Source: a virus
Taxonomy: Duplodnaviria; Caudoviricetes
Reading direction: 5' to 3' (one strand)
Length of the DNA stretch: 63,457 nucleotides
Virus record (IMG/VR): IMGVR_UViG_3300032782_000011
Coordinates: 1 to 63,457 of that record
A program made the translations under genes and the position numbers. Below the pieces are notes generated by a model that saw only the letters and a list, made by a program, of their open reading frames with translations, was not told where the DNA came from and did not search any database. Positions 7,095 to 63,457 of the stretch are shown here, piece after piece (the stretch's first letter is position 1; every line of letters begins with the position of its first letter).

Positions 7095-7530
7095 TGGGCT
7101 TTAGTTTCCAGAAGCGAAGCCTGCCGATGTTCAGCGTATTCACGTAATTCGCTTCATTCCCCCATGCTCTAGGCCACTGGATGCTGGTGTCGTAGTAGTA
7201 TGTGGCTCCGTTGGTGTTATCGGGGTCGCTACCACTCATGACGCTCGTTGCTGCTACACAGCAATCATTAAAGCTAGGGTCGTCGCCTAGTGGCCACTTG
7301 TCAGCGTTAGGGTCGTTGGCATTGAAACTTGAGAATTGCTCCGGTTGAAGAATGACGCGTTTGAGACTGCCAGCTTGGTGACCATTCCACCAATTAGACT
7401 CGACTGAGCGATTGACGATGACGTGGGCCACACCACGCTTGCCGTCATAAGGCTCCCCTCGCGCTTCACGCCAGATGGCAAGCTGAAGTAGCGCTAGGTC
7501 CGACATCGAATTGTAGGGCATCGGTATCAT
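7051..7530 (-). CDS. Endolysin, SleB/Hydrolase_2-type cell wall hydrolase
   Basis: IWREARGE...VAHVIVNR...QFSSFN...DNTNGATYYY signature. Confidence 0.9.
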   Translation of the reverse strand: MIPMPYNSMSDLALLQLAIWREARGEPYDGKRGVAHVIVNRSVESNWWNGHQAGSLKRVILQPEQFSSFNANDPNADKWPLGDDPSFNDCCVAATSVMSGSDPDNTNGATYYYDTSIQWPRAWGNEANYVNTLNIGRLRFWKLKPIIEQADAEFALGTE

Positions 7531-41815: not shown

Positions 41816-41823
41816 GGAGAATA

Positions 41824-44801: not shown

Positions 44802-45779
44802 ATGTCTCTCCAAAGCATGGCCGCAGAGTTGCGTGGGGCGCTGCCAAAGCTCCCTATTGCTTACGCCCCAACTCTAATCAATAGAGCATGGCGAGAGATT
44901 CGCGAGAGCGGCCTTTGGTCCTTTAACCTTTACGAGCAGAGCTGGATTACCCCACCCATCGTCACGGCTGGCACAGTCACCGTAACTCAGGGTCTCAATA
45001 CCATCACTTTCGATGCGAACGCCATTGCGGCACTTCTGGCATCGCAGGTCGCGAATCCCTACTCACCTATCACCACTCGCCAGTTTCGCATCGCGGTCGG
45101 TGGAATCTACAACCTCGTGACCATGGATTTCGGCACAGGGGACGCGACACTCGACCGCATCTGGGGAGACCCGAGTGGAACAGGCACAGCTTATACGGTG
45201 TATCAGGTCTACTACGTCCCACAGTACAAGGACCATCTTCGTTGGATGAGCGTGCGGAACCCGATTATGTTTCTGGACCTAAATCTCAACACGACACGTC
45301 AGGACCTTGACTCACTCGACCCACAGCGTCTCTGGTATGCATGGCCAACCGATGTCGTACCTTGGGGCCGGGACCAGCGACCGGGGAGCGCCACAGCGGA
45401 CTTCCCGCTCTACGAACTCTGGGGACAGCCTGTGAACCCCTTCACCTATCAGTGCTACGGGTTACGTAAAGGAGCCGACTTAGTAAATCCCACCGACACC
45501 CTCCCTTACAGCATCGGTGAAGAGTTCGTCCTCGCCCGAGCGCGTTGGTACGCCTACGAGTGGGCGGAAGCGAACAAGGATATGAGCCCGCGCAGTGCTG
45601 GCCCGGATTTTAGATTTCTGATGGAGAAGGCTGACAAGGATTACATCCGTCTGCGCACCATGTATCGGCGTGAAGACCGTGAACTGGTAGACAACTGGTT
45701 TAGCGTGCGCGGCTTGAATTACCCAATTTTCTCGCTCGGTCACTACAACACTATCGGTGGAGTGGCGGGTCCAGCATGA
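44802..45779 (+). CDS. Head-tail adaptor-like protein with inserted beta domain
   Basis: LINRAWREI...WSF N-terminus; AGTVTVTQG insert. Confidence 0.65.
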   Translation: MSLQSMAAELRGALPKLPIAYAPTLINRAWREIRESGLWSFNLYEQSWITPPIVTAGTVTVTQGLNTITFDANAIAALLASQVANPYSPITTRQFRIAVGGIYNLVTMDFGTGDATLDRIWGDPSGTGTAYTVYQVYYVPQYKDHLRWMSVRNPIMFLDLNLNTTRQDLDSLDPQRLWYAWPTDVVPWGRDQRPGSATADFPLYELWGQPVNPFTYQCYGLRKGADLVNPTDTLPYSIGEEFVLARARWYAYEWAEANKDMSPRSAGPDFRFLMEKADKDYIRLRTMYRREDRELVDNWFSVRGLNYPIFSLGHYNTIGGVAGPA

Positions 45780-48700
45780 GACGCTTACTATTCATCATCG
45801 GATTGCTCCTATGTGCTGCTACATCAGCGATGGGTAACGAGGCTGCTCATGGATGGTGCGAGGTTGGAGCCCAAGTCGTTGTCACCTCAGGTCTCACCTC
45901 GACGACGCAGGTACAGCGCTCATTCCCGCAATGCACCATCACTGTCTACAATCGCGGCAGTTCTACACTTGCGACCATCTACGCCGACAATAGCGCTACC
46001 CCCTTGGCAAATCCCTTCACTGCCGGGACGAATGGCCAGTGGATATTCTACGCCGCGAATGGCCGTTACGACGTGCAGATGTCCGGCGCGGGGTTTCCTA
46101 CCCCTGTCACCTATACTGACATCCTGCTTAATGATTTCGCGAACCAAGCACCCTCCATCGCCTGCACAACCGTAACCTATGCCCCCACGCTAGCATTCGA
46201 CGCCACAAACAACGCCTGCTACACGGTGACGCTCACAGGGAATCTCACATTCAGCATCACGGGCACCCCTGCGAACGGCAACTTCCTGAAGCTGCAACTC
46301 TACGAGGATGGCGTTGGTGGACACTTAATCACTTTTCCACTCAACTTTAGTGTGCCCGCATCAGTCCCTGTGACCACGGCAAACTATCATAACGACCTGC
46401 TATTCAACTACGACACCCCAAATCTAGAATGGCAGCCAGCAGCGAACTTCGGCGGCAACGGAGCTGGTGGAGTGGTGAGCTTCAATGGCAGGACTGGTGC
46501 GGTTGTATCGGCTACGAATGATTACGCCTTCAACCAGATTTCTGGTGTGGCCCAGCCAAGCCAGGGTGGCACGGGTTCGGCGACACCAACGACGAATGGT
46601 GTGGCCGTCGCGCAGGGTGCGAGCACACCGTATCTGTTCGTGTTGCCTACGAACAATGCGCAGTGCTTCATGTCTGACCCGACGAATTACCTTCTAAATC
46701 CGCCGTCCTACCAGACTTGCCCCTCCTCCACGGGAGGAAGCTCTGTCGGCGCGCAGGGTACGGTGAACGCGGCGGGTGCGAGTGCTGGCAGCTTCGCGCA
46801 AACCTCCATCTGGGACATCAACGGGCCGGGTGGGACGTACTTTCGGGGTCTAAATCCGTACATCGATGTGACGCACCCGACATTTGGCGGATACATTGGG
46901 CCGCACTACAACGCCGCCGCGACGACCTGCACGATGTCAGCAAGCTCGACGACAGCTTCCTGCGCGTCAGCTTCAGACTTTCTTGGAGGTCAGGGCATCC
47001 TCATTGTCGGTGCTGGGCCAGCGCCCGTTATCGCTACGCCACAAGCGCCTACAGTGACGCCCCTGTTCCAAGTTGGCTCGACTACTCGTAGCTACTGCAT
47101 CGCCGACCGTGACTGGTTCGGCGGCCTGACACCTTGCAGCCCTGTGGGCAGCACAGCCATTGCTCCATCCTCGATGGCACTCCAGAGCTACAGCATCGCC
47201 TCGTGGAGTTGGAACTCTTCGACCAACACCATGACGATTACGACTTCGGCAAACCACAACATGCCGACCACAGCCTCTGGCATCGCGAGCGAGCCCTATG
47301 CGCAAGTTGAGATTCAGGCGGGAACGTCAAGCAGCGGGCTTTGCGAAGGGTCGTTCTCACTGACGGCTGTACCTTCAGCCACACAGTTGCAGTTTCAGCG
47401 CAACGAATTGACTTCAAACCCGAGCTGCTCAGGCGGCACATTACGCATCGCCCCGAAAATCATTCTGAAGTGGGACTCACACTATACCTATAGCGTGACA
47501 GCAGCTTCCTGCTCGGCAGGAACAGCGACAATTTCAGTTTCCCCGGTACCGCTCGGGCCAGATGGGACATGGGTGATTCCCAGCAACGTAAAGGCCATCA
47601 CTTCCGGGATTTCCGACTCTCATTACAACGGGACAGTTTCGGTTGCTCCTGCAACGGGAGCGTTCACGTTCGGATTGAATTGCTCTGGTGTCACAAACGT
47701 GGGCGCTGGAGGCACGCTTTCGCTCGTACCCGGTAAGGCGGTGAAGAACCATCTCGTCTATGCCTGCAACGGTGGCTCCTGCGCACTTCCAGCTAACGCT
47801 GCAAACTATTCGCTAGTCGGTGTGGCACAAGGCAACGATGGTTACTTCATCGACCGTGGCTGGGCCATTTCCTCATCGAGCGTAGACCTGGGAGCACCTT
47901 CGACAGCCCCAACGACGGCTATCAACGAATGGCTGGATACCACTATCACGGCGGGTGGTGGCACCACCACGCTGACACTGGCGAATCCTTCGACGAATGC
48001 TGTCACGAGCGCAGGGGCATGGCACGACAACTTTCCAAACATCCTCGCGGCGTGCGCGACACTCCCAGCGAACTCTTCGGCATCGAATGGTGGCCATATC
48101 ATCGTTCCCGCGACAGGTTCGCTGTACAATTACTTCCCAATCATCGCGAACTTAGACCTCGTAGGTAACTTCGCGCAAGCCCCGAAGAACTGCCCAGGCA
48201 ACACGACGATTGATTTCGGCTCCGAACCTTGGATGGACGGCTCAATCATGCTGGGTAAGGGAGATGCTATCCAAGGTGCAGCAGTACAGGGTGCGACGAA
48301 CTGCCAGACGACATTCTACCAAATGGGTCCGGCACTCGGATGCGGCCAGGGTAACTCCTACCCGATGATTTATTTCGAGCCCGAGCAGGCCAGCTCGAAT
48401 TTCCTAAAAGACTTCGCGCTCAACCCTCAGGGGGCGTACCAGTCCGGTGTGATGATTGACGAGCAGATGAACGGTGATGGCACCGTATCGCTCCGCACCG
48501 ACAACTTCCACGTCAATGGAGGCATCCACAGCTATCCCATCATCGACCGCGCTGGATTCCAGCACTCGTTCAATTACGGCGGCTGGTCCAATGGAGGGGG
48601 AAATTTCTCGGAAAGCATCGTGTATCAGTTTCAGCCACTTTGCGGCATGCCGAACTACTATCCCTTTGTCGCCGCACCGCTACCCTATATCGTAAATACG

Positions 48701-51700
48701 AACCATACCTACAGTTTCGGGACTATGGAGATTGACAGTTGCGGTCAAGCCTCAGGGAACTTCGGCAACACGACGGTCTTTAACGACCTAATAACAGAAA
48801 GCAACGCAGGGCCGCCCATCAAGGCGAATCTGTACCCATACGGGGTCGCGCAACTCACCATCAACTATGCCAACAACGCAGACTTGATTGGTGGTTCATC
48901 TACCCCCTACCTCGATGTAACAAACGCCACCATTGGCAGTGCGGCATTCAACTTCATCGGCTGCGGCACCTCAACTCAGCCACTGTTTGAGACGAATAGC
49001 GCCAATCCCTACAGTGGAATTCACCTCACGATGGGCTTGGGCTGCAACGGTGGCATCGGCTATCCTCCACTCGCAGGTGTCGTCTACGAGAATCTCTACC
49101 GTAACCAGTGGAAGTGGAACGGCATGCAGTTCGCCATGACGAATGGTGGGAGACTCACCGCGGGGCAGATTACGACGCCAGCGGTCGCTCCAACGGTCAC
49201 AGTCACGACTTCCTGCACAGGCTTCCCTCCTGCTGGCACCTATACCTACGGTGTTCTGGCATGGGACGCAACCTCGAATCCAGCGGCGGGCACGGGCGGC
49301 GCGACGACAGTTGGCCCGGCAAGCACGTCCGTCACGCTGAACGGCACTACCCAATGCGCCAGTATCGCGCAACCGACGCTGCCTACCGGAACAGCCTACT
49401 GGGGCACCGCTCGACTCTCCGGTCCTGGCTCCGTAGACCAAGTATTCATCTCCGGGGTGAGCAGCATCAATGCTTTCGTGCCCGTCACCACGACGACCAT
49501 CGTGGACCAGACGACATTCACGGCGGGTAGCGTACCGAGCATCAATACCACAGGTCTACAATCGGTCAGCGCTGGGAATATCACTGGGAACATCCAGCCG
49601 ATTACCATCGCACCGCTAACGGACAACACGGTACCCATTGGCACCAACTCGCTGCACTTCACAAATTTGTTCCTGAACACGCGTCAGGTCTCGACGTTGC
49701 CAACTGCTTCTACCAACTTGGGCGCGGTCTTTATCGTCACTGATGGTCAGAGCACAACGGATTGCACCTCGGGTGGCGGCTCATTCCAAGCGTGGTGCCG
49801 TTCGAATGGCACCTCATGGGGCTCCGTGAGCGGCGCGGTTGGGGGGTCGGTGACAGCGTTTACAGCACCTTCCGGTAGCTGGCCAACGTGGCTCGTACCT
49901 ACCGTGACCAATGGTACGACAACCCCGCAACTGACCGTGGCAGCTTCGACTATTCCAGTCGGCGCTGGCGGTACAGGTGCGACAACTCTCAGCGGCGTCA
50001 TCAAGGGTAATGCTACATCGCCATTCACCGTCGCGGCTGCGGCGGATATTTTTGGGCTATGGAGTGGGACTTGCAATCTAAGCACGAACTTCCTACGGAG
50101 TGATGGTGTATGCGCACCTCCTCCGGGTGGTATGGTCTATCCAAGTGGCTCGGGATTTGCCATCGTGGCGGGTGGCACTTCATGGGGAACGACACTAGCC
50201 GACCCCCTCACCCCAACTCATGGTGGCAGCGGCCTAAGCAACCCTGCACCTCACTCTCTCATGCTGGCTGAAGGCGCGAGCAACTATAACCTCGTCACGT
50301 CGCCATCGACCAATGGCTTCTATCAGTGCGGGTTCAACGTCACGGCGTCGGTGGCAGTGGACCTCACATGCGCGCCTGCTGGAGTTTCAGTAAATCTCTT
50401 GAGCGGCAACTACCCGCTCGTCTACAGCGACCGCGCCAGCTTTCAGCGTGAATCGAGCACTACGACTTCGACGTTGACGCTTCCTCAGGTGGCAGGTAAC
50501 ACCGCATCGAACTTCCCCTTCGTCACCGCAAACTTCAACTCCGCGAACGAGACGCTGCAAGCGAATGCGGCGGATAAAATCGATGGCGGCTCCTTAGGTG
50601 GTACACAGAACGTGCTTCCTGGTTGGGCGGCATTTGTCTACCAGGATTCCACATCAGCCCCCGGCAACTGGTGGAGCGTGATACTGCCAATGCTCAGCGC
50701 GTTGCCAACATCCTGCGCGGACAGTGGGGGCAACCACATCAACTTCACGGCTGCTGGAGGCTTTACCTGCGGCTCAACATCGAGTGGCGGCACACCCTCG
50801 TTCCCATTGACGGTTACAGGAACGGTGAACTCGGGTGGCATCCCCTACTTCAGTAGCACGACGCAGGAGTCTTCATCCGCAACGCTCGGGGCTGGAGCCA
50901 TCGTATTCGGTGGCGGCGCGGGTGGGGCTCCAACGACGGGCGCTGGCGACTTCACTTATTCCTCGCATACACTTTCTGGTGGCGCGTCGGCAATCTTCGA
51001 CCTGAGCGCGGCGGCTTCGTTTAAGATTCCGTCGAGTGCGGCCTGTGCTCCGACGACTGCGGCGCTGCTCTGCTATGATTCTACGAACAATCGATTCGTC
51101 GGTGGCAACGGGACGAACACTTCCTACCTCCCGTGGTTCCTTTCGGCTCCAGCCTCGCTTAATCTCGTGGAGTGGAACGGCACCCTCGGCAAGCAGGACG
51201 ATACGGGCATCGCTACAGCGAACGTGACACAGACCGTCGCTACGCCCTCAGCCAATCAGATTTGCGTCTACGCCTCCACAGCCAAGACCTGTACACCAAC
51301 CACGACACTCCCAACTCCTGCGGTCCCGGCATTCTCGGGTGACATGACCAATTCGTTGGGCTCGCTCGTTACTGCGGTCGGGAAAATCAACGGCGGTAGC
51401 TATCCTACCAACGCGCATGTCGTCGGTTCAAATGGTTCATCGCAGCCTACAACTTCTACCCGTACCGACATCGACGCTATTACCTATGCGGCAGGTGGCG
51501 GCTCGGCAAACGCGCAGACCGTGACACTCTCTCCTGCGGTGACTTCCTACACCACAGGGCTTACCGTCCGCTGGAAGCCCACGGCGGCGAACACGAACTC
51601 GACACCGACACTCGCGGTGAATGGCCTATCGGCTATCACCATCGTGAAAATCGGCGGCGCGACGCTCTCAAATAGCGACCTTACGACGACAGCGATAGCG

Positions 51701-52246
51701 ACGGCTATCTATGATGGAACGAACTTTGAGCTTCAGAATCCGCAGACCGGGCAGCCTGCTACGGGCACGGCTGGCGGAGACTTAACAGGTTCTTACCCGA
51801 ATCCTACCGTCGCGGCAAACGCTATCACGGGCGCGAAGATGGCCAACAACACCGTGACAGCCACGCAACTTGCCGCGCAGTATTCCAAGGGTTCCTGCAC
51901 GGAAGCATGGGGCGGGTCGGGAACTTCGCACGCGCTCACTTCCGGCGACGATGCAGTGGTGAACAACACCTGCTACAACGACTCCGGCGTGACGCGCACG
52001 ATTACGGCGGTGAAGTGCCGCAGCGACAACGGCTCCAACACCACGACAGTCAATCCCACATTCGGCTCGGCTGGAACGGGCACAACGATTCTCTCTGGGG
52101 CGCTGACCTGCGGAAACAGCTACGCGTACAGTTCCAGCGGGACGGTGTCGAACGCAAGCTGGACAACGGGCACGGGCATTGACCCGGCGATGGGCGGGAC
52201 GCTCACGGGTACGAGCATTGCCGTAATTATCGAGTACACATTCTGA
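45776..52246 (+). CDS. Giant tail fibre/spike (2156 aa) with N-terminal signal peptide
   Basis: MRRLLFIIGLLLCAATSA; ATIYADN...LANPFTA...FYAANGRYDV attachment-type domain; VVSFNGRTGAV, GGTGATT and GGDLTGSYPNP fibre motifs; beta-helix-like middle. Confidence 0.8.
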   Translation: MRRLLFIIGLLLCAATSAMGNEAAHGWCEVGAQVVVTSGLTSTTQVQRSFPQCTITVYNRGSSTLATIYADNSATPLANPFTAGTNGQWIFYAANGRYDVQMSGAGFPTPVTYTDILLNDFANQAPSIACTTVTYAPTLAFDATNNACYTVTLTGNLTFSITGTPANGNFLKLQLYEDGVGGHLITFPLNFSVPASVPVTTANYHNDLLFNYDTPNLEWQPAANFGGNGAGGVVSFNGRTGAVVSATNDYAFNQISGVAQPSQGGTGSATPTTNGVAVAQGASTPYLFVLPTNNAQCFMSDPTNYLLNPPSYQTCPSSTGGSSVGAQGTVNAAGASAGSFAQTSIWDINGPGGTYFRGLNPYIDVTHPTFGGYIGPHYNAAATTCTMSASSTTASCASASDFLGGQGILIVGAGPAPVIATPQAPTVTPLFQVGSTTRSYCIADRDWFGGLTPCSPVGSTAIAPSSMALQSYSIASWSWNSSTNTMTITTSANHNMPTTASGIASEPYAQVEIQAGTSSSGLCEGSFSLTAVPSATQLQFQRNELTSNPSCSGGTLRIAPKIILKWDSHYTYSVTAASCSAGTATISVSPVPLGPDGTWVIPSNVKAITSGISDSHYNGTVSVAPATGAFTFGLNCSGVTNVGAGGTLSLVPGKAVKNHLVYACNGGSCALPANAANYSLVGVAQGNDGYFIDRGWAISSSSVDLGAPSTAPTTAINEWLDTTITAGGGTTTLTLANPSTNAVTSAGAWHDNFPNILAACATLPANSSASNGGHIIVPATGSLYNYFPIIANLDLVGNFAQAPKNCPGNTTIDFGSEPWMDGSIMLGKGDAIQGAAVQGATNCQTTFYQMGPALGCGQGNSYPMIYFEPEQASSNFLKDFALNPQGAYQSGVMIDEQMNGDGTVSLRTDNFHVNGGIHSYPIIDRAGFQHSFNYGGWSNGGGNFSESIVYQFQPLCGMPNYYPFVAAPLPYIVNTNHTYSFGTMEIDSCGQASGNFGNTTVFNDLITESNAGPPIKANLYPYGVAQLTINYANNADLIGGSSTPYLDVTNATIGSAAFNFIGCGTSTQPLFETNSANPYSGIHLTMGLGCNGGIGYPPLAGVVYENLYRNQWKWNGMQFAMTNGGRLTAGQITTPAVAPTVTVTTSCTGFPPAGTYTYGVLAWDATSNPAAGTGGATTVGPASTSVTLNGTTQCASIAQPTLPTGTAYWGTARLSGPGSVDQVFISGVSSINAFVPVTTTTIVDQTTFTAGSVPSINTTGLQSVSAGNITGNIQPITIAPLTDNTVPIGTNSLHFTNLFLNTRQVSTLPTASTNLGAVFIVTDGQSTTDCTSGGGSFQAWCRSNGTSWGSVSGAVGGSVTAFTAPSGSWPTWLVPTVTNGTTTPQLTVAASTIPVGAGGTGATTLSGVIKGNATSPFTVAAAADIFGLWSGTCNLSTNFLRSDGVCAPPPGGMVYPSGSGFAIVAGGTSWGTTLADPLTPTHGGSGLSNPAPHSLMLAEGASNYNLVTSPSTNGFYQCGFNVTASVAVDLTCAPAGVSVNLLSGNYPLVYSDRASFQRESSTTTSTLTLPQVAGNTASNFPFVTANFNSANETLQANAADKIDGGSLGGTQNVLPGWAAFVYQDSTSAPGNWWSVILPMLSALPTSCADSGGNHINFTAAGGFTCGSTSSGGTPSFPLTVTGTVNSGGIPYFSSTTQESSSATLGAGAIVFGGGAGGAPTTGAGDFTYSSHTLSGGASAIFDLSAAASFKIPSSAACAPTTAALLCYDSTNNRFVGGNGTNTSYLPWFLSAPASLNLVEWNGTLGKQDDTGIATANVTQTVATPSANQICVYASTAKTCTPTTTLPTPAVPAFSGDMTNSLGSLVTAVGKINGGSYPTNAHVVGSNGSSQPTTSTRTDIDAITYAAGGGSANAQTVTLSPAVTSYTTGLTVRWKPTAANTNSTPTLAVNGLSAITIVKIGGATLSNSDLTTTAIATAIYDGTNFELQNPQTGQPATGTAGGDLTGSYPNPTVAANAITGAKMANNTVTATQLAAQYSKGSCTEAWGGSGTSHALTSGDDAVVNNTCYNDSGVTRTITAVKCRSDNGSNTTTVNPTFGSAGTGTTILSGALTCGNSYAYSSSGTVSNASWTTGTGIDPAMGGTLTGTSIAVIIEYTF

Positions 52247-53838
52247 TGAAGCGACTGATTCCAATTCTCCTGTGGGCTTCGGTAGTGATGGGCCAAAGCC
52301 AGACGATCACCGCGTCGTTTCCGATAGCCGCCGCTCCGTCCATCCCCACGCTCGTGCAGGTAAAAGCTACTCCCTCGGATGTGCAAAGTACGGGGCCGTT
52401 AATCAGTAATGGGGCTTTCATAGTCACCTGCTTTGCAAATACCACGCAGGTTAACAACACTGTGATCGTCCGGCTCACCACGCCATCAACTACGGGGAAC
52501 GTCACTTCCGTAACCGATGATGGCTCCTCCTCGAATACCTATACCTTGCAGAAGAACGAAACGGCTGGAAGCGAAACACTAGCGATCTACAGTGCCCCAG
52601 TTGTCCATGCCTCACGGTGTGTCACTGTAACATTCACGCTCGGTACTGGAGCGACGGTGATTGGCAATCAGGTTAAGCTCTATGAGTTTGACAATCTCAG
52701 CACCGCGTCGGGCACAGGTTCGGTGGATGTTACCTGCTCAGGCACGGCCACAAGCGGGACGGCTCCGGCGTGCGGCTCCAGCATGACTCCCACTTTGTCG
52801 AATGATCTTGTGATGACATTCATGGATGTGGTGAGTTTCAGTTCTAAGCCCGCCACGTCAGTTACTTTCACCGCGCAGACCGGGACAGCGCCAACTTACA
52901 GTTTGGTGGACGCGGCGGGCACAGACTGGACCGCCAGCCAGTACGCCACCAACGCTGCCCTTTCCGCGATCACGCCATCCATCACCGTTTCGCAGGCAGT
53001 CACCCGCGCTAACGTGGTGGGAATCGCTTTCAAGGCTGCGAGCAATGGGGGAACCTATAGCGGCGTGCATGTCAATAATGTCACGTTCAACGCCCCGCAA
53101 TACAGTCAATCCTCGTCGTTCACGGGGACGACTTTCGTGGTGCAGTTCCCATGTTTTGGAAACGATCTGTGGGTACTGATTGGGCAGGGAGCGAGCAGTT
53201 CCACTGACAACACAACCAGCATCGGATCGGACAGCAACAGCAACTCCTGGACAGGACTCACCAACGTCTATAGTTCTGGGGACGGTTACGCTGTTCGCTG
53301 GTGGCACGCCGATTCAGCTACCTGCAACGGCACGGAAAAGTTCACGATCAACTTCACTTCCAATCCATCGTATATGTTCCTTCTGACGGTGGATATAGGC
53401 AACTCCGGCGGTTACGATTCGACTGCTGGAAATGTCACTTTGAACAGCGGCAACTCCGCAACCAATCCGCCGACAACGGTTTCGGGCGGCTCCATCACTC
53501 CCAGCACGACCAATGGCGTGATTTTGAGCTATATCAACCAGGACTACGATACGGCCAGCGCCGTTTCGACCTCTGCTGCTGGCGGGATATGGGCTAGTGA
53601 CAATATGAGTTGCCCGAATGCGACAGGTGGCACAGGATGTGCAGCCCTTGGTACTTCTGGATCATATTACGCCTACTCTGGCTCGGGTTTCGAGCAGGAC
53701 GGTGGATTCATGGTGGACTATTACGGCAATTCCACTTCGTCGGTTTCGACAACCTGGACGTGGGGCACGCTGGGCAACACGCAAAATCGTGCGATTGGGC
53801 CTTATTTCTACTCTAGCGTCGTGGTGAAACATAATTGA
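52246..53838 (+). CDS. Secreted-type Ser/Thr-rich beta-sandwich protein (fibre/adhesin), 530 aa
   Basis: MKRLIPILLWASVVMG-Q signal peptide; VTDDGSSSNTY-type modules. Confidence 0.7.
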   Translation: MKRLIPILLWASVVMGQSQTITASFPIAAAPSIPTLVQVKATPSDVQSTGPLISNGAFIVTCFANTTQVNNTVIVRLTTPSTTGNVTSVTDDGSSSNTYTLQKNETAGSETLAIYSAPVVHASRCVTVTFTLGTGATVIGNQVKLYEFDNLSTASGTGSVDVTCSGTATSGTAPACGSSMTPTLSNDLVMTFMDVVSFSSKPATSVTFTAQTGTAPTYSLVDAAGTDWTASQYATNAALSAITPSITVSQAVTRANVVGIAFKAASNGGTYSGVHVNNVTFNAPQYSQSSSFTGTTFVVQFPCFGNDLWVLIGQGASSSTDNTTSIGSDSNSNSWTGLTNVYSSGDGYAVRWWHADSATCNGTEKFTINFTSNPSYMFLLTVDIGNSGGYDSTAGNVTLNSGNSATNPPTTVSGGSITPSTTNGVILSYINQDYDTASAVSTSAAGGIWASDNMSCPNATGGTGCAALGTSGSYYAYSGSGFEQDGGFMVDYYGNSTSSVSTTWTWGTLGNTQNRAIGPYFYSSVVVKHN

Positions 53839-56800
53839 AAATACGCTGGCTCATCCCATTCCTGCTCCTCTGGCCCTGCTGCGTTTTCGGGCAAGCCACT
53901 TACAATGCCGCCGGATGCTCGCTCGCGCAGGTGCAGGCGGCCTATGCAACCGAACAGGCCAGCAAAGTGGATGGCGACATCATTGCGGTGCCTTCCTGCG
54001 GAACTACTACGTGGTCCTCATCGTGGAGCATTTCTCCAACGAACTCGCTGACGATTCAGGGCAATTCGACAACCAGCGGAACGTGCGCTCCCGGCGGCTC
54101 ATGCACGGCTACCGATAACACCAACATCGCCCTCAGTTCTACTTTTTCCGTCACGACAGCAGCGGGGAAATCGTTCCGCTTTACTGGCTTTTCCATAACC
54201 GTCTCGGGGACTGCCCGTTATGGAGCAACAAATTTCACGGGGGCATCGACGGCAGTTCGCGTGGATCACAATCATTTTATCGAGAATGTTCCAGGCGACC
54301 ATACGATCCAGGTTGACGGGATAAGAGGAGTATTCGATCACAACTATCTTGAGACTCCGGTAGGCGAAAATATCAACTTTTTCCAAATCTCCAACTATGG
54401 GACCGATGGCAATGCGAATATCATCTGGACGGTCGCTGAGAATTTTGGAAGCAGCGACTTTGTTTTTCTGGAAAATAATTACTTCACGGGATCGTTCATC
54501 TACGACTGCGACTACGGCGGAAAGATTGTCTTGCGCTACAACATCCTGTGGTACGGAACGCAACTTCAAACGCATGGCGTAGGCTCTGGAGCGCAGCGGC
54601 GCGGCTGCCGGGCGATGGAAACTTACGAGAATGCCTTCACCTATAGCAACAGCCCGAATACAAACAGCTTTTCTTTCCTGGTTGATTACGAAAGTGGTCC
54701 GATGATGTTCTGGGGCAACACGGTAACAGCCTTTGTGACCATGTTGCGCGAGCAGGAAGTGCGGGCCGACAATGCTACCTATGGGCAGACGGCGACCCCC
54801 AACGGCTGGGGATACTGCGGAACAGCATTCAACGGCACAGGCTCCAACTGGGACCAAAACAGCAATACCTCTAGCGGTTATGCGTGCATTGACCAAGTAG
54901 GACGCGGAGCGGGGCAGCTACTCACAGGCTCGTTTCCATCGCTCATCAACAGCAGCACGGGCACTATCGCATGGCCCAACCAGACCCTCGTACCCACCTA
55001 CTCCTGGGGCAACACGCAGAACACCAACAGTTACGCCACGAACCACTTCTGGCAGACCTATGAAAGCCCTGCCCGCGTCACCGAGAACACAGAGTATTAC
55101 AACCAATACCCGAATGTGGACCATGCGGGAGCGTTCACCGGAGCAGGCGGAACAGGATGCGGACCAACTACCGGAGTCGGCTGCCCAGCGAATGCGGTAG
55201 CTCGGCCAGCCACCTGCACGACTGGCGTTGTCTGGTGGGATGTTTCCAACCAGTACCTTGACAAATGCACCTCGACCAATACTTGGACGAATGCCTTTTA
55301 CACACCCTACACCTACCCGCATCCGTTGACGCAGACCACACAGACCCCCGGCTTCGTCTCGGAATCCGGCAAGAACTCGACGCTGAGTGTGGCGCTGGGA
55401 GCGAGCGGTGGAGGCGGATTCATCCCGACGAGCACCTGCGCCAGTTATTCCTACTGCTTGCCGTTCGCGGAAAGCACACTCGCTGGCAACTTCGGGATTG
55501 CGGCATTCCAGTATGCGAACGGGACCGCTGTGACAACCACGGCCACCGACGACAAATCCGATACTTGGACGTGCCTGACCTCATCATCTGCAAGTTCGAG
55601 CAAGATGCTGGGTATCTGCTACGCGCCCAACCTCACCGCCGGGGCGAGCAAAGTAACGGTGACGTTCGGGACAACCGCTGTTACGCAAGTGCAGGCCGAT
55701 GTCGCGCAGTTCTATAACATTGCGGCATCCTCCCCGCTCGTGACGAGCAACTCCGTCGTAGGGACAAGCTCCACAACCATGACCGGGCCATCGCTCACGA
55801 CTTCAGCGAATGACCTTGTGTACGCCATGTTCTGCCGTACCGGCACGCCGCTGATGACCTCAGGCTCGTTCACTCCCGGCTCGGGCTTCACGCTGGGCCT
55901 GACGAAGTATCAAGACGGTTGCGCCACTGAATGGCAGGTGTCTACAGGTGGCTCCGTCACGCCCACCATGACGATGGGCAGTGCCTCCACCTACATCGTC
56001 TATGCAGCGGACTTTGCGGCTTCGACATCCCCACAAGGCAGCGCCCCGACCGCGCCGTACCTCCAGCGCGTGATGTCGTGGAGTTCGCAATCGGGTGTAT
56101 CTGCCTCAACTACGAAGTTCCAGCTTCCCAACGGCAGCAATGACTTGCTCGTGATGACCGGAGCCGGAGCCGCCAACTACCTCGGCAATAGCATCACCGA
56201 TTCCGGCTCGAATACCTGGACGCTTGCCGGGCAATGCCAGCAGAATAATACCGGAGCCGGGAACTGCACGAGCTCTGGCGGCTATTCCTATGAGTTCTAC
56301 AAGACAGGTGCGGCGGCCAACACCACCAACACGCAGACCGTGAACTTCACAGGCTCCGGCGATGCGACGATTTTCTTCTACGATTTCGTCGGCTCGTTCA
56401 CCTATAACACGCGCAGCCAGCAATCCTCGAACTCCAGTACGACGAACACACTCCCCGCATCAGCCTTCTCGTTCAATCCCGGAGCGACAAACGCGCTGAC
56501 CATTGCCATCGGGCCGATTGCGTTCAACACGGCGGCTTCGGTGGCGCAACCATCGTCGAACGCCACGAACTACTTTGACGGCGGCTGGTTCGGCGGGGAA
56601 ACCATCAACGGAGGAGGAACGCCGGAATCCATCATTGACCAGAACAACATCTTCAGCCACACCTATACGACAACCAGCGGCGCGAAGAACTGGCAATGGA
56701 ATACGGCGGTGAATAGCAGCGAGGCGAACAACGTCGGCGTGGACTTCATCAGCTTCACGATAGGGGCAGGCGGCGGCAGTGTCTCCCTTGCGCCAACCTC

Positions 56801-57485
56801 GCAGAACTTCGGCTCTGTGAATGTCAATTCGTCCTCCTCGCCCACAACATTCACGCTGACCAACAATTCCAGCAGCAACGCGACATCGGTAGCAACGTCC
56901 ATCACGGGAACAAATTCCGGGGACTTCACGAAGGGCAGCGATACCTGCAACGGGAGCAGTGTTTCGGCCTCGGGTGGAACTTGCAGCCTGACCGTCACAT
57001 TCTCGCCAACGGCCAGCGGGTCGCGCTCGGCAACGCTCAGTATCTCCTACTCAGGAGCGGACGGAGCCTCACCAAAGACCGCAGTGCTCTCAGGCATTGG
57101 AATTGTGGCGGTTACGCCGACGTTCACTCCAAGCAGTGGGACATCTACGACGCCAATCGTCGTTACTGTCTCGACGACAGCGGGTACAGTTATCTGCCAT
57201 GGAACCACGAATCCTCCAGTCACGAATGGTGCAGGGACCGGATGCTCGACAGGAACGGCCATCACCACCAACTCCGGCACGAATTGTGTGGCGAGTTCCA
57301 CTGTCTGTGGAGACTTCACGGTGACAACCTCGCAGACGCAGTACGCCGTTGCTGGCCTGAACGCACAATCTGATTCGAGTGTGGCGAGCGCAGTATACAC
57401 AGTAACTCCACCAGCAGTAGCACCTAAAGCAACGATTCTCGCGGGTACCATTATCCTAAATGGAGGAGAGGTGATAATCCCATGA
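53835..57485 (+). CDS. Secreted-type multidomain protein (beta-helix, beta-sandwiches, ASH-like Ig and FN3-associated domains), 1216 aa
   Basis: MKIRWLIPFLLLWPCCVFG-Q signal; RVDHNHF/VFDHNY beta-helix; YTPYTYPHPL; FGSVNV...TFTLTN...C...CSLTVTFSPTASGSRSATL; TPTFTPSSGT...SSVASAVYT. Confidence 0.75.
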   Translation: MKIRWLIPFLLLWPCCVFGQATYNAAGCSLAQVQAAYATEQASKVDGDIIAVPSCGTTTWSSSWSISPTNSLTIQGNSTTSGTCAPGGSCTATDNTNIALSSTFSVTTAAGKSFRFTGFSITVSGTARYGATNFTGASTAVRVDHNHFIENVPGDHTIQVDGIRGVFDHNYLETPVGENINFFQISNYGTDGNANIIWTVAENFGSSDFVFLENNYFTGSFIYDCDYGGKIVLRYNILWYGTQLQTHGVGSGAQRRGCRAMETYENAFTYSNSPNTNSFSFLVDYESGPMMFWGNTVTAFVTMLREQEVRADNATYGQTATPNGWGYCGTAFNGTGSNWDQNSNTSSGYACIDQVGRGAGQLLTGSFPSLINSSTGTIAWPNQTLVPTYSWGNTQNTNSYATNHFWQTYESPARVTENTEYYNQYPNVDHAGAFTGAGGTGCGPTTGVGCPANAVARPATCTTGVVWWDVSNQYLDKCTSTNTWTNAFYTPYTYPHPLTQTTQTPGFVSESGKNSTLSVALGASGGGGFIPTSTCASYSYCLPFAESTLAGNFGIAAFQYANGTAVTTTATDDKSDTWTCLTSSSASSSKMLGICYAPNLTAGASKVTVTFGTTAVTQVQADVAQFYNIAASSPLVTSNSVVGTSSTTMTGPSLTTSANDLVYAMFCRTGTPLMTSGSFTPGSGFTLGLTKYQDGCATEWQVSTGGSVTPTMTMGSASTYIVYAADFAASTSPQGSAPTAPYLQRVMSWSSQSGVSASTTKFQLPNGSNDLLVMTGAGAANYLGNSITDSGSNTWTLAGQCQQNNTGAGNCTSSGGYSYEFYKTGAAANTTNTQTVNFTGSGDATIFFYDFVGSFTYNTRSQQSSNSSTTNTLPASAFSFNPGATNALTIAIGPIAFNTAASVAQPSSNATNYFDGGWFGGETINGGGTPESIIDQNNIFSHTYTTTSGAKNWQWNTAVNSSEANNVGVDFISFTIGAGGGSVSLAPTSQNFGSVNVNSSSSPTTFTLTNNSSSNATSVATSITGTNSGDFTKGSDTCNGSSVSASGGTCSLTVTFSPTASGSRSATLSISYSGADGASPKTAVLSGIGIVAVTPTFTPSSGTSTTPIVVTVSTTAGTVICHGTTNPPVTNGAGTGCSTGTAITTNSGTNCVASSTVCGDFTVTTSQTQYAVAGLNAQSDSSVASAVYTVTPPAVAPKATILAGTIILNGGEVIIP

Positions 57486-57889
57486 TTAGGTGGATAGTAC
57501 TAATAGCAGTAGCATGTCTCTCAGGGTTCATCGGGAGTTCCTTGTCAAGAGTCCACGCACAGTCGGGCCAAGTTGTGTTTCTGGGCGCTGCTGCGGGAAC
57601 GACGCTTGCAGCTAATTGCCCTGCGACTCCAACCACACCGAGCATCTGTGTTGTCGGCTCAGCTGTGTATATCTGGCAAAGTTCCACGACGGGGTGGTTC
57701 GCTCCACAGCCACCAGCGGCAGGGTCGAGTATCTCTTCTATTCAACTTTGCAACCTCGCTGGAGCAAACTGTGGCACCGCTCAAACTGGCCCAAACGTCG
57801 TTCTGAAAGTCCCTCAGTCAGTGGCCGTCACCGTAGGCAACCCGACTGTCACAGCCACGCAGGGGGCGGTGAGCGCGACGCTTCAGTGA
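57482..57889 (+). CDS. Small secreted-type protein
   Basis: Signal peptide ending VHA-Q; two Cys pairs. Confidence 0.7.
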   Translation: MIRWIVLIAVACLSGFIGSSLSRVHAQSGQVVFLGAAAGTTLAANCPATPTTPSICVVGSAVYIWQSSTTGWFAPQPPAAGSSISSIQLCNLAGANCGTAQTGPNVVLKVPQSVAVTVGNPTVTATQGAVSATLQ

Positions 57890-57967: not shown

Positions 57968-58204
57968 GTGATGAATCCGCAACTGAAAAATGTCTTGGTA
58001 ATATCAGCGAAGCAAGGACTTAACGCCCTACTAGTGAACACTGCTGCCTCTCAGTTTTGGCCACAGATATTCACCATCCATACAAAAGCTGGGCTATTCA
58101 ACTTTCTCTACCTCATTGGGGCTCAAGTTGGCGCAAGAGAGGTGGCCGTATGGCTTCCCGTACTACTCCGTTGGTCAACAACCAACGCGGACCCAACACT
58201 CTAG
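57968..58204 (+). CDS. Holin-like membrane protein
   Basis: AAGGAG RBS; small with hydrophobic segments. Confidence 0.5.
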   Translation: MMNPQLKNVLVISAKQGLNALLVNTAASQFWPQIFTIHTKAGLFNFLYLIGAQVGAREVAVWLPVLLRWSTTNADPTL

Positions 58205-58215
58205 GGGGCCAACCC

Positions 58216-58870: not shown

Positions 58871-60226
58871 ATGGCCCCGTACAACTACATCAGCTACGTG
58901 CAAGCGCGGCAGGAGCTAGCGCAGAGACTCTACGACCCGACCGAGACTTTCTGGACGGACGCTGAGCTTGGGCAGTACATCCTTGAGGCCCTACGAACTT
59001 GGAATGCCCTAACTTCCTACTGGCGCGGGGACTTCACCTTCGTTGCGAGCGCTAGTAATCGCTGGTATGACCTCACAAACGCTACGCAGATGCCAAACAC
59101 GCTGAGGCCTTACACGCTCACCGACGTATGGGTGTATCAGCAGATGGAGTATCACCTCTTAGAGCCATCGACAGGCATCAACCCATGGGCGGGCTCATCA
59201 CAGTTTAGTGCGGCAGACTTCACCTCCGCTGTGTGGCGGCGTAGGGATGAGATTCTATCGACGACTGGATGCACCGTGGGTGAGCAGACTGTCCCAGCCT
59301 TGAGTGTCAGGACGCTCCTACCTGATTCGGTTATCGACATTCGCAGGGTCGCTTATCTGCCTGCGGCGAACGCCTCGCCAACGGTACTTTGGGATGAGGA
59401 TGCTTGGTCGATGCAAGCGTTCACTGCTGGCTACCCGATGCTGCCTCCAGGACTCCCGGCGATGTACCTTAGGTCTACACAGCCGCCTATCAGTTTCGAC
59501 ACCGACAGAGCCCCTGGATATGGTGGGACTTATGAAGTGCTCACCATCAACGCTGGACCTACTGTATCTACTACAACACCTACTCAGTTGCTCATCCCTG
59601 ATGACTGGGCTGATGTCGTCAAGTGGGGGGCGTTGTCTGATTTGCTATCCCGCGAGTCGAATGCGAAGGATATGACCCGAGCTACCTACTGTGAGCAACG
59701 CTACCGTATGGGGATGAAGCTGCTCCAGAAGGCTCCAGCCATGTTGGCCATACGGCTAGGCAGCACACTCCTGCAAATCGACTCTATCTACTCGGCTGAT
59801 GCGTTCAATACGACGTGGGAGGCTCTGGCGAATGGCGCGCCTGCGAATGTGTACTACGCAGGGCTCAACCTGTTCGCTCTATCACCCACGCCAGATGCGA
59901 ATGGTCCTTACTCGTTTCTGGTCACGGTAGTCCAGAATGCGCCGATGCCCACGAGCAATGGTGACTACCTTCAAGTCGGTAGAGATGACATGGATGCTAT
60001 TCTGGACTACGCTCAACACCTTGCATCCTTCAAGATGGGTGGAGAGGAATTCACGCGGACGAATCAGTTGTTGCAGCACTTTTTGAGTCAGGCCTCGCTA
60101 TATGGCCTGAAGCTAAGCGAGATTGGCGAGTTCACAGAGCCCATCTACGACCTCGCTCGGAGCGAGAAGCAGATGAAGCCGATTATGACACCTGATACCA
60201 ACTCGCTCGGCGGGCCGGAGGAGTAA
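58871..60226 (+). CDS. Tail/adaptor protein (tail tubular A-like)
   Basis: RLYDP...FWTDAELGQYILEALR N-terminus; precedes the large tail protein. Confidence 0.7.
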   Translation: MAPYNYISYVQARQELAQRLYDPTETFWTDAELGQYILEALRTWNALTSYWRGDFTFVASASNRWYDLTNATQMPNTLRPYTLTDVWVYQQMEYHLLEPSTGINPWAGSSQFSAADFTSAVWRRRDEILSTTGCTVGEQTVPALSVRTLLPDSVIDIRRVAYLPAANASPTVLWDEDAWSMQAFTAGYPMLPPGLPAMYLRSTQPPISFDTDRAPGYGGTYEVLTINAGPTVSTTTPTQLLIPDDWADVVKWGALSDLLSRESNAKDMTRATYCEQRYRMGMKLLQKAPAMLAIRLGSTLLQIDSIYSADAFNTTWEALANGAPANVYYAGLNLFALSPTPDANGPYSFLVTVVQNAPMPTSNGDYLQVGRDDMDAILDYAQHLASFKMGGEEFTRTNQLLQHFLSQASLYGLKLSEIGEFTEPIYDLARSEKQMKPIMTPDTNSLGGPEE

Positions 60227-63200: not shown

Positions 63201-63457
63201 GTGGTGCTCGCGCAGGGGCAGATTTATCAGCAACAGGACCTGCACAATGACGACACAACCATGATACGGGGGATTCTAGCGACGAATGAGTTCGATGGCG
63301 GAGACATAAGGGCCGTGAAGCAGTGGGGGGACTTGTTCCTCGACGTGAGGCCGATTGCCTCGGCTATAGGGACGACTGGGATTACTGTCACTCCGCTCTC
63401 GAAGGGTGCGCCAATTCTTGGAGCGCCCATTCATGTCGCTTATAACGCATCTAGGGT
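60228..63457 (+). CDS. Large tail nozzle/tubular-B-like protein, N-terminal part (about 1241 aa across the junction)
   Basis: GGAGGAG RBS; MDFGRPREGFRF...; frame stays open to the window end, so it is absent from the ORF track. Confidence 0.8.
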   Translation, partial: MDFGRPREGFRFVFNGWKVNTQPDAMSQGKYALAINVRAYSDVSTRTRPGIAALYSLGGQYPTDINTYQPLVFGSLATDNPVRTLSRGADDTIYLDGNGATTGVLVGTLAGAGVSYGASMIPFRPNESTVPWMYVANGFDYQKFSAPDLGGTTVMQQKVGIAEPQIQPEAMLWDNAGLGCSPMYEQHGTPALTAGGTAGTITSSSRISDTVVASFTDPIYALAGSPALGNPVPVTLQVGSSVAYSKYMMLFVTHSGDSTLARVIDVFPPLSGSIPIEQIYYFSGTTGRCVLSPAQIGSDTLPDQSIYSTTFISGLRRGALIKIGTEVCMVWSVTTGPNGAIAIETSTTSNHTTADALTGVSAIQMMLSSANYTGYTLTSPSDSFAVTTGIGTATGVPVITFASSGNAYQSDDYLHLSVYIDNPTNLVEMKFLLDVGDGSFSQNFFYYTIRQADLAQAINNAVTQLAIAQTVAQRAIIDEEEAIAAANEGETFSGAQSATGSNQWTEIFFPISQLTRVGNDDTKSLQTLTKFQLLINCSANVNVQVGGIYISGGSQVDVGDVGAPLRYRFIGYSSTTGVRSNPSPETRYGVSPRRGQVLVYIPNGATPYDPQIDTWWIYRYGGSITTWRFVGQVSVNPVLGSIPLFFDNFDDAAISAGDELQFDNFEPWPSVDDPNNSLLVSFAGTVAVVSSPDEDITSYLPGTLVRFTASENVYTLRTRPTLISGANFLLQFDECIQPSGPNCIIQEPLIANQFLPYMWGPDVNGTVFACGDTLRPGNIYFSKSNAPDAAPDTYNEELCPPSEPLLGGEIIDGISFVASSSRWWGLYFQQGNDAQRYAFVQQPFQRGLAAPFGHCNDGKNIYWWAPDGIWSSSEGSLTDADLSTLFPKDGVIGKAYSYNGVTINPPDYQQCSKFRLEYCNGYLYALYAPIGGGPYVTLVCDLKRKAWSVDIYDNMYMVSALHTIPQKVAEPGFITIPYQPSAKLLVGGTINVVLAQGQIYQQQDLHNDDTTMIRGILATNEFDGGDIRAVKQWGDLFLDVRPIASAIGTTGITVTPLSKGAPILGAPIHVAYNASR

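Follow-up and report, generated by a model that had tools for sequence, protein, structure and literature searches.

Tailed-phage morphogenesis is, to our knowledge, taught as a purely cytoplasmic process, host secretion being thought limited to lysis proteins and morons. The tailspikes of P22 (gp9) and Sf6 (gp14) fold in the cytoplasm and carry no signal peptide; the tailspike is added last in assembly, a step that in vitro works on finished heads. We likewise know of no leader on the matched tail-complex chains of the cyanopodophages Pan3 (9vyg) and Pam1 (7eeq), which gave the best fold matches in the present work, at 15-19% identity. For P22, a figure legend gives the tailspike as lacking a signal peptide (bioRxiv 10.64898/2026.09.13.751334, figure legend). 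In A4, a cyanopodophage related to Pan3 and Pam1, fibres are described as docking at the adaptor-nozzle junction (PMC12002296). The large protein studied here, P0001, resembles the P22 and Sf6 spikes in having a constant N-terminal anchor followed by a variable distal part. In P0001, unlike in these spikes, the domain comes with a Sec-type leader and a cysteine pair.

The filamentous phages offer a likeness for export. In Ff, the virion proteins pIII and pVIII, the receptor-binding one among them, are synthesised with Sec leaders and undergo maturation in the envelope. PMC9402515 names the gIII signal peptide. Inoviruses, however, are extruded through the envelope without lysis, whereas the present phage is of the lytic tailed type, with terminase, portal and endolysin. 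Pantoea stewartii WceF is described as a trimeric beta-helix glycanase that resembles tailspikes and has an export signal at its N-terminus (PMC7949094), but it is the product of a bacterial EPS-cluster gene, has a Tat and not a Sec signal and is no virion part. Host Sec already serves some tailed-phage proteins, namely exported lysis proteins such as T4 RI (PMC8385771) and SAR endolysins (PMC3556154). These are small lysis regulators or enzymes, in contrast to the multi-kilobase structural fibres considered here. No report of tail fibres with a Sec signal in tailed phages was found in full-text searches of a literature collection that leaves out most subscription journals, or in passages of PMC3556154, PMC12309495, PMC5026251, PMC5723332 and 10.64898/2026.09.13.751334.

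The closest cultured relatives, the Tunturiibacter phages Tunturi_1 and Tunturi_2 (PP887698, PP885685), share gene order and the gp12 anchor domain with the present phage. The annotation of their gp12-gp17 products reads hypothetical, tail spike or virion structural protein, and the distal parts are unlike those of the present phage. In the main text of the Tunturi paper, 'signal peptide' and 'mass spectrometry' each have 0 occurrences.

Genome and fibre module

The window, i.e. the whole stretch of DNA analysed (63,457 bp), is a complete 63.5-kb podovirus genome, kin of the Acidobacteriota phages Tunturi_1/2. Terminase, portal, HNH and capsid genes are located upstream of the fibre module; the capsid protein shares 31% identity with its counterpart in the isolated podoviruses Tunturi_1/2, whose gene order is the same. 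The main features are as follows.

44802..45779, + strand: 325-aa conserved tail-core protein, without leader, counterpart of Tunturi_1 gp11 'tail protein'
45776-52246, + strand: P0001, 2156 aa
45776..45835, + strand: predicted P0001 Sec-type signal peptide, residues 1-20, cleavage predicted from the family profile at A18-M-G20↓N21
45836..46150, + strand: putative particle-binding (head-binding-like) N-terminal domain of P0001, residues 21-125, conserved Cys28/Cys53, from an AF2 model and fold matches
46151..52246, + strand: long distal remainder of P0001, rich in S/T/G/N, with 40 more Cys, closely paired
52246-53838, + strand: P0002, 530 aa, predicted leader residues 1-16 (VMG↓QSQ), 8 Cys
53835-57485, + strand: P0003, 1216 aa, TTG start, predicted leader residues 1-19 (VFG↓QATYN), 26 Cys
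57482-57889, + strand: P0004, 135 aa, predicted leader residues 1-26 (RVHA↓QSGQ), 4 Cys in two close pairs
58871..60226, + strand: 451-aa conserved structural protein, without leader, counterpart of Tunturi_1 gp30
60228..63457, + strand: large conserved structural protein, without leader, counterpart of Tunturi_1 gp31
7051..7530, - strand: endolysin, without leader
8432-8833 and 9082-9510: membrane or lipoprotein-like ORFs close to the endolysin

The stop of the 325-aa tail-core gene overlaps the start of the fibre gene, and homologues of its product occur in 33 related-locus ORFs. The large structural gene reaches past the end of the window; with the 8-bp terminal overlap taken out, its reading frame runs on through 1-504. 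The endolysin together with the adjacent membrane or lipoprotein-like ORFs makes a candidate lysis cassette, which bears on the joining step proposed below. One more ORF (819-1274), small and without a leader, looks by eye like the product annotated 'tail fiber protein' in Tunturi_1.

For P0001, an origin as prophage cargo or moron was rejected: the assembly consists solely of the window, with its 8-bp end overlap, no integrase was found in the subset of the genome's ORFs that was scanned, and the family of the anchor domain is, by its distribution, viral. Indeed, this family is encoded on 245 IMG/VR contigs, many of them of 58-66 kb, while searches of the species-genome collection yielded first 0 matches and then 1, which lies on a Terracidiphilus MAG contig.

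Sec-type leaders on four coupled ORFs

The four ORFs exist with the N-termini quoted in the original prediction, and the start/stop overlaps it listed (ATGA, TGATG, TTGA, ATGA) are as stated, the ORFs being translationally coupled. It further proposed a Sec signal peptide on each product. We used, in place of SignalP, a rule-based test for a positive n-region, an uncharged hydrophobic core and small residues at -3/-1, and all four ORFs were positive. Each has K/R within residues 2-4, passes the hydrophobicity rule and satisfies the -3/-1 rule at the predicted cleavage site (A-M-G↓N, V-M-G↓Q, V-F-G↓Q and V-H-A↓Q for P0001 to P0004, respectively). In the 196 non-redundant homologues of the P0001 anchor domain, leaders (median length 20 residues) follow a fixed register counted from the first Cys of the domain: K/R dominating at -26/-25, a Leu-rich core from -24 to -14, P/A/S at -13 to -11, then A, found at -10 in 102/196 and at -8 in 130/196. 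This register places the P0001 cleavage after G20, so that the leader proposed for this protein stands while the cleavage originally placed after A18 does not.

Of the 82 greedy ORFs that make up the rest of the genome, 5 were positive in the same test at the first start: one lipoprotein-like ORF and four doubtful short ones. Among conserved head/tail core proteins of related phages the positives were 1/144 and 0/36. With so few positives among other ORFs, among core proteins and among the proteins of Tunturi_3 (see below), a run of four predicted leaders in a row is far beyond chance.

The leaders and their conservation were computed directly. Leader-positive sequences amount to 133/150 for homologues of the P0001 domain, 72/108 for P0003 matches, with one leader near-identical, and 8/8 for P0004 matches. 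P0002 matches were positive at the called start in 13/24 cases, the remainder being mostly leader-like by eye or truncated; one 99%-identical relative is recorded with a leaderless N-terminus. Chance or mis-called starts were rejected since homologues of all four proteins keep their leaders. For P0003, a database gene caller began 32 codons downstream (P0179), but relatives retain a near-identical leader.

In Tunturi_1, gp12, gp13, gp16 and gp17 are leader-positive, and the gp14 leader follows a longer n-region. Tunturi_3, which shares its host strain with Tunturi_1, gave 0/20 leader-positive proteins in its structural module, with few Cys. A trait imposed by the host was thus rejected: since a phage on the same strain lacks them, the predicted leaders belong to the phage lineage and are not forced by the host.

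Anchor domain and its cysteine pair

The original prediction placed a tailspike-attachment-like domain directly after the first leader, and modelling agrees with it. The AF2 model of residues 21-125 (pLDDT 91.9) has its best solved fold matches in tail-complex chains of Pan3 (Z 9.5) and Pam1 (Z 8.8), followed by the N-terminus of the Sf6 tailspike (Z 8.1) and the P22 head-binding domain (Z 7.6-7.8). The P22/Sf6 alignment spans the entire domain (model 5-105 versus chain residues 14-118) at ~10-13% identity. These matches are middling, generic transthyretin-like and pilin domains appearing at Z ~7-7.5 in the same list. In BFVD, 16 matches at E<=1e-3 were obtained, those with a name being called pectate-lyase-superfamily protein, EPS-depolymerase, tail spike protein, conserved phage protein or uncharacterized protein. 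On this directly computed fold, the domain behind the predicted P0001 leader is structurally a tailspike/fibre particle-binding domain. Since the best fold matches are podovirus fibre/spike particle-binding domains, P0001 is, as modelled, a virion fibre and not a moron.

At E<=1e-3, a search with the domain returned 4548 homologues. Among the top 150 matches (lengths 128 to 2038 aa) the domain mostly begins at residues 18-30, and in leaderless relatives at about residue 2. The latter start at the predicted +1 position, with the Cys column at residue 8 in 9/15.

The raw association between leader and Cys pair, also computed directly, is complete in 76 ORFs of 75 viral loci: 39 have a leader and both Cys, 4 a leader and one Cys, and 33 neither leader nor Cys, other combinations being absent. 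No leaderless homologue in this set retains the Cys pair of the domain. Homologues lacking the leader had been named in advance as evidence against export. Such homologues were found, yet they are without the Cys pair and start at the predicted mature N-terminus. Because the pair is missing and the start falls exactly at that position, their pattern argues for export rather than against it. The P0002 family likewise shows its conserved Cys columns in pairs, and the overall Cys pattern fits oxidative folding outside the cytoplasm. Nevertheless, the association may reflect few evolutionary events. Well-supported branches of the domain tree force a single leader/Cys change as compared to 9 in the best tree, and repeated co-change was not demonstrable by the tree and an independent-pairs analysis, the latter test being without power.

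Proposed export and assembly of the fibres

The reading we favour, with a probability of roughly 0.55, is that the fibres are Sec-exported, oxidatively folded and attached upon breach of the inner membrane by the holin. Export, cleavage and disulfide formation are our inference, as are when and where attachment takes place. Together, the four ORFs would encode the receptor-binding appendages of a lytic podovirus of Acidobacteriota type. A short cleavable Sec/signal-peptidase-I leader would take each product, still unfolded, into the periplasm, where it would fold and gain many disulfide bonds, while fibreless, DNA-filled particles would be assembled in the cytoplasm. The two pools would meet once the holin opens the inner membrane, or later in the lysate. 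The P0001 anchor domain, lying right behind the cleavage site, would then dock on the tail as in P22, Sf6 and the cyanopodophages, fibre docking being the final assembly step. The three smaller exported proteins would be either carried on the large fibre or free exported enzymes. Attachment only at lysis looks inefficient, and this counts against our best explanation.

Unlikely, but the strongest of the alternatives, is that the exported proteins are free periplasmic or released enzymes or binders and no virion parts, the real receptor-binding proteins being encoded elsewhere. They could be EPS/O-antigen depolymerases, or receptor-destroying or surface-modifying proteins, that condition the infected cell, block superinfection or release progeny from debris. 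Consistently, the anchor domain is present in P0001 only; P0002, P0003 and P0004 lack it, none of the four proteins has a PHROG match, and no homologues of P0002-P0004 were found in 80 related loci. The N-terminal ~500 aa of P0003 give weak leads to right-handed beta-helix/chondroitinase-B-like proteins, with feature scores of 0.86-0.87 (bar 0.9) against the Beta_helix/Chondroitinase_B atlas clusters, and residues 1-980 have no Pfam and no PDB sequence match. Leader-bearing relatives of this region are partly located on long, apparently bacterial contigs (240-620 kb, with Acidobacteriota names), like ordinary secreted bacterial proteins. Moreover, in the unrelated siphovirus Tunturi_4 an annotated tail fibre without a leader lies next to two proteins that bear one, and the resemblance of the leaderless ORF 819-1274 mentioned above points the same way. 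Against this stand the particle-binding domain directly behind the predicted P0001 cleavage site and the location of the gene within the tail module (in relatives, after the 325-aa tail gene or between the 451-aa and large structural genes). Also, the N-terminus is constant while the C-terminal parts that follow it range from 128 to 2038 aa, in the style of host-range fibres. Finally, since the domain keeps its leader-linked Cys pair, selection on the exported anchor form is suggested. For P0002-P0004, a place on the virion and a role as free exported enzymes or host-surface proteins are both possible.

Somewhat less probable again is a dual use, in which an unexported or downstream-start fraction is built into particles in the cytoplasm and the exported fraction is a free enzyme. 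Phages are known to produce soluble besides virion-bound depolymerase. In-frame Met codons lie beside the predicted cleavage sites, at residue 19 in P0001 and residue 15 in P0002, so that a cytoplasmic isoform of these two proteins is conceivable. However, a +1 Met occurs in only 15/196 homologues and is therefore not a conserved feature; P0003, P0004 and Tunturi_1 gp12 have no such Met, and a cytoplasmic isoform would be unable to form the Cys pair that tracks with the leader.

That the hydrophobic N-termini act as membrane anchors that stay uncleaved, or as Tat/lipoprotein signals, keeping the proteins membrane-tethered, is very improbable: P0001 does start with M-R-R and P0004 has a long hydrophobic stretch, but twin arginine occurs in just 42/185 distinct leaders with K freely replacing R, the leaders are short (median 20) with a very hydrophobic core and small -3/-1 residues at fixed register, inspection of the four leaders found no lipobox ([LVI][ASTVI][GAS]C) before a Cys, Cys is rare in the family leaders (9-11/196 at -14/-13), and leaderless relatives begin at the predicted +1.

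Returning to export followed by late attachment, we give even odds to its extension to a widespread ~60-65 kb soil podovirus lineage with two-compartment assembly, in which cytoplasmic heads and tails and periplasmic disulfide-bonded fibres are joined at holin breach. The all-cytoplasmic view is challenged by the occurrence, across hundreds of metagenomic phages as well as cultured isolates, of a conserved Sec leader joined directly to a particle-binding domain. If the extension is true, neither a Sec-dependent virion component nor a split-compartment assembly pathway would have been described before in tailed phages, and the cross-linking of fibres for survival in acidic soil would have an explanation. 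Its confirmation would change phage annotation, as leaders on large 'hypothetical' genes would flag receptor-binding proteins; it would also affect host-range prediction in soil viromes, require rethinking of lysis timing constraints and give a natural way of making disulfide-stabilised fibres and depolymerases.

As for composition, the S/T/G/N richness described for the four proteins holds (S+T+G+N 0.38-0.47 versus 0.20-0.31 in terminase, portal, capsid and tail core), as do the spaced Cys pairs, the mature proteins having 42, 8, 26 and 4 Cys, all even and closely paired. The suggestion of glycosylation fared worse: N-x-S/T sequons are not enriched over the composition-based expectation from shuffles (34 observed vs 34.2 expected, 13 vs 10.4, 23 vs 24.2 and 0 vs 1.1 for P0001 to P0004, respectively). 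Sequence searches against the PDB yielded no useful match, and those against Pfam yielded two matches in all. Outside the anchor domain, P0001 residues 2001-2029 give a weak, sub-threshold match to the DUF5907 repeat (Pfam). P0002 belongs to a family of unknown fold whose nearest atlas clusters carry viral labels, and P0003 residues 983-1089 match the Ig-like Cep192_D4/HYDIN domain (Pfam).

Four consecutive ORFs with N-terminal leaders

Four consecutive ORFs of the window begin with a predicted N-terminal Sec-type signal (leader):

45776-52246, + strand: P0001, the large fibre, 2156 aa
52246-53838, + strand: P0002, 530 aa
53835-57485, + strand: P0003, 1216 aa, TTG start
57482-57889, + strand: P0004, 135 aa

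The sequence bears out the original prediction as regards the ORFs, the N-termini and all four start/stop overlaps. Leaders were scored with a rule-based test, which looks for a net positive charge, then an uncharged hydrophobic core, then small residues at positions -3 and -1. All four ORFs (4/4) were positive. Among the remaining 82 ORFs of the greedy gene set, five were positive, one lipoprotein-like and four doubtful short ORFs, while conserved head and tail proteins of related phages, necessarily cytoplasmic, gave 1/144 and 0/36. The S+T+G+N fraction was 0.38–0.47 in the four leader proteins versus 0.20–0.31 in the head and tail core. Cysteines after the leader numbered 42, 8, 26 and 4 (P0001 to P0004, respectively), all even and arranged in close pairs.

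The assembly consists of the window alone (63,457 bp). Positions 1-8 and 63450-63457 are identical over 8 bases (TCTAGGGT), and the last ORF (60228-63457) reads on in frame into positions 1-504 after removal of this 8-bp overlap. Because of these shared ends and this continuation, the window appears to represent an entire, circularly permuted phage genome of ~63.4 kb. The following genes precede the leader ORFs:

35275-37536: large terminase
38009-40105: portal
41731-42378, + strand: HNH endonuclease, between a scaffold-like gene and the capsid gene
42446-43555: capsid protein

The capsid protein shares 31% identity over 95% of its length with the major head protein of the Tunturiibacter phages Tunturi_1 and Tunturi_2, described in parts of PMC11924767 as short-tailed isolates from an Acidobacteriota host. 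Gene order is also that of Tunturi_1, with a ~330-aa ‘tail protein’, several large genes, then a ~450-aa and a ~1300-aa structural protein. In Tunturi_1, an HNH gene follows directly on the portal gene, so the HNH gene of the window probably represents a homing element within the head module.

Conservation of the leaders and of a cysteine pair

Leaders were kept in all four protein families. Of 1.84 billion cluster representatives searched with P0001 residues 20-135, 4548 matched at E<=1e-3. Among the top 150 of these 4548, the match mostly started at residue 18-30, and 133/150 passed the leader test; those that did not were mostly truncated or over-extended start calls, or genuinely leaderless proteins. 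Alignment of 196 non-redundant homologues on the first Cys of the domain gave a profile with M and K/R at -27 to -25, a Leu-rich core at -24 to -14, P/A/S at -13 to -11, A at -10 (102/196) and -8 (130/196), and N or R at -7. Distinct leaders had a median length of 20. As judged by sequence, the leader of this family is a Sec-type rather than a Tat-type signal, twin arginine being present in only 42/185 distinct leaders.

For P0002, 13/24 homologues passed at the called start, several more appeared leader-like by eye and others were fragments. P0005, a database homologue 99% identical to P0002, is recorded with different, leaderless first ~30 residues, because of either a wrongly called start or a junction made by recombination. 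In the P0003 family, 72/108 homologues passed. Here the database gene caller had placed the start 32 codons downstream of the TTG; since the relative P0185 keeps a nearly identical leader and mature start, the TTG start of P0003 is considered real. All P0004 homologues (8/8) passed and share the motif ...A|Q-[ST]-G-Q at the leader end. At the predicted +1 position, N predominated in the P0001 family, whereas the P0002, P0003 and P0004 families, like Tunturi_1 gp12, gp13, gp16 and gp17, very often had Q (...A|Q...); this host group may have a preference for Gln at the N-terminus, possibly as pyroglutamate.

The anchor domain of P0001, a particle-binding-like domain at residues 21-125, includes the pair Cys28/Cys53. 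Using a leader criterion independent of the start codon (a hydrophobic stretch of nine residues in the 30 residues preceding the domain), we classified 76 domain-bearing ORFs from 75 viral loci: 39 had a leader and both Cys, four a leader and one Cys, and 33 neither leader nor Cys, with no other combination. Leaderless homologues carry V, A or S at both Cys positions and an initiator Met at the predicted mature N-terminus, the Cys column being residue 8 in 9/15. Nine leaderless ORFs lie in loci also holding homologues of the head/tail core of this phage, and both states thus appear to occur among related phages. In a tree built from the remaining 72 columns of the anchor domain, the best topology implied nine changes, of which well-supported branches force only one, and an independent-pairs test had no power, so the association may reflect few evolutionary events. 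Independent support is given by the even, paired Cys of all four proteins together with the Cys columns conserved in pairs in the P0002 family, where P0002 lacks both members of a pair kept by 17–18 of 19 aligned relatives.

The anchor domain of the large fibre and a possible route to the particle

The fold of P0001 residues 21-125 was modelled from a 65-sequence alignment from related viral loci (pLDDT 91.9). Foldseek against the PDB ranked tail-complex chains of the cyanopodophages Pan3 and Pam1 at the top (E 7e-3 to 3e-2, probability 1.0). A second structural aligner gave Z values of 9.5 for Pan3, 8.8 for Pam1, 8.1 for the Sf6 tailspike N-terminus and 7.6–7.8 for the P22 tailspike head-binding domain, each match spanning the entire domain. 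These values are moderate. Generic domains of the transthyretin-like and pilin kinds score 7–7.5 in that list as well, so function is not proved by the fold alone.

Predicted viral structures gave 16 matches at E<=1e-3, of which those with a name are entered as pectate-lyase-superfamily protein, EPS-depolymerase, tail spike protein, conserved phage protein or uncharacterized protein. The domain family is viral: an IMG/VR scan found it on 245 contigs, many of 58–66 kb, and two scans of prokaryote genomes, with one genome for each species, gave none and one 5.9-kb contig (in a Terracidiphilus MAG bin), respectively. In relatives, the fibre gene follows directly after the 325-aa tail protein or lies between the genes of the 451-aa and the large structural protein, and protein length behind the constant N-terminus varies from 128 to 2038 aa among the best 150 of 4548 homologues. 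Jointly, the modelled fold, viral family, gene position and variable length identify P0001 as a putative tail fibre or spike, with a predicted particle-binding anchor as first mature domain, in support of the tailspike-attachment-like domain that had been proposed behind the P0001 leader. This anchor resembles that of P22-type tailspikes, although P0001 falls outside their family. Filamentous-phage pIII is likewise a receptor-binding virion protein with a Sec leader, but P0001 does not belong to the pIII family.

The four products would be exported unfolded by Sec, their leaders cut off by signal peptidase I and their cysteines oxidised in the periplasm. P0001 would then dock through its anchor on particles built in the cytoplasm, either when holin lesions have joined the compartments or afterwards, in the lysate. 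Such late docking is plausible because P22 tailspikes bind finished heads in vitro. We assign export, oxidative folding and late docking of P0001 a probability of roughly 0.55. Disulfide cross-linking, impossible in the cytoplasm, would be the likely gain from export, providing stability outside the cell. The original interpretation finds partial support: sequence comparisons speak well for export and oxidative folding, and nothing supports the glycosylation that it also envisaged as possible.

Searches of the full-text literature, with subscription journals thinly covered, turned up no tailed phage reported to carry signal peptides on its tail fibres, and the main text of the Tunturi paper mentions neither signal peptides nor mass spectrometry (PMC11924767). 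Excerpts of other articles describe export of lysis proteins by tailed phages (PMC8385771; PMC3556154) and WceF, a bacterial tailspike-like enzyme with a Tat signal (PMC7949094).

Accompanying proteins, alternative readings and distribution among phages

P0002, P0003 and P0004 showed no anchor domain and no PHROG match. They behave like exchangeable cassettes; none of the 80 related loci had a homologue of them within 10 kb of the fibre gene. The P0002 fold had no assignment, its nearest atlas clusters being 91–100% viral. For the N-terminal ~500 aa of P0003, the sole leads, to right-handed beta-helix and chondroitinase-B-like proteins, fell below threshold, and residues 983-1089 match an Ig-like Cep192_D4/HYDIN domain. 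Some of its relatives lie on 240–620 kb contigs with Acidobacteriota names, indicating a module common to bacterial secreted proteins. It is for these three proteins that a role as free enzymes or surface modifiers, with no part in the virion, has most in its favour; for the exported set we regard this as unlikely. In the P0004 relatives P0289 and P0290, the leader and first domain are kept and the C-terminal half is swapped for a ‘SFNGRTGAV’-type fibre motif, also present in P0001 at about residue 235. This hints at P0004 being small and fibre-like, not a chaperone, and suggests shuffling of modules among exported fibre proteins.

Dual use, with a cytoplasmic isoform besides the exported form, could draw on a Met near the predicted cleavage site in P0001 and P0002, but such a Met occurs in only 15/196 P0001-family homologues and we consider this rather improbable. 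That the leaders are uncleaved anchors or other signal types seems highly improbable.

Such leaders are not confined to this phage. Tunturi_1 gp12 has the anchor domain in common with P0001; gp12, gp13, gp16 and gp17 pass the leader test at their annotated starts and gp14 (‘tail spike’) has a leader behind a longer n-region (20, 10, 1, 32 and 21 Cys, respectively). Among the 43 leader-bearing loci, the fibre gene lies within an unbroken run of two, three or four leader ORFs in 7, 4 and 3 loci, respectively; leaderless loci have no leader on any neighbour in 29/32. Other same-strand ORFs of at least 150 aa were leader-positive in 42/249 cases in leader loci versus 17/210 in leaderless loci (Fisher p 0.005). 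The siphovirus Tunturi_4, which is unrelated but shares the host genus, encodes the leader-bearing, Cys-rich gp113 and gp114 (8 and 20 Cys; L083 33651-37324), annotated as tail protein and virion structural protein and adjoining a leaderless tail fibre and assembly protein. Sequence comparison confirms the leader observation and extends it to a phage lineage.

The podovirus Tunturi_3 infects the same strain as Tunturi_1, and the 20 of its structural-module proteins that were examined (L085 7573-31068) are leaderless (0/20 in the leader test) with few Cys. The leaders are therefore a strategy of particular phage lineages, not forced by the host on every phage. Cultured isolates allow the finding to be tested directly, with Tunturi_3 as a natural control for leader experiments.

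Lysis candidates and neighbouring features are the following:

7051-7530, - strand: conventional, leaderless endolysin
8185-8259: tRNA-Thr, near the endolysin
9082-9510, - strand: lipoprotein-like ORF, leader ending in L-G-G-C, near the endolysin
9521-12316, - strand: 931-aa ORF with a uracil-DNA-glycosylase-superfamily domain (residues 30-171) and a family A DNA polymerase domain
58057-58407, + strand: small ORF with a hydrophobic C-terminal segment, in a gap of 1 kb that separates the exported-protein genes from the structural gene after them

Two small membrane-like ORFs also lie near the endolysin (7051-9510, - strand), and the ORFs of this region are candidates for a holin/spanin set apart from the structural module. 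The ORF at 58057-58407 had no Pfam match; in Tunturi_1, the matching gap is occupied by the endolysin and small membrane proteins.
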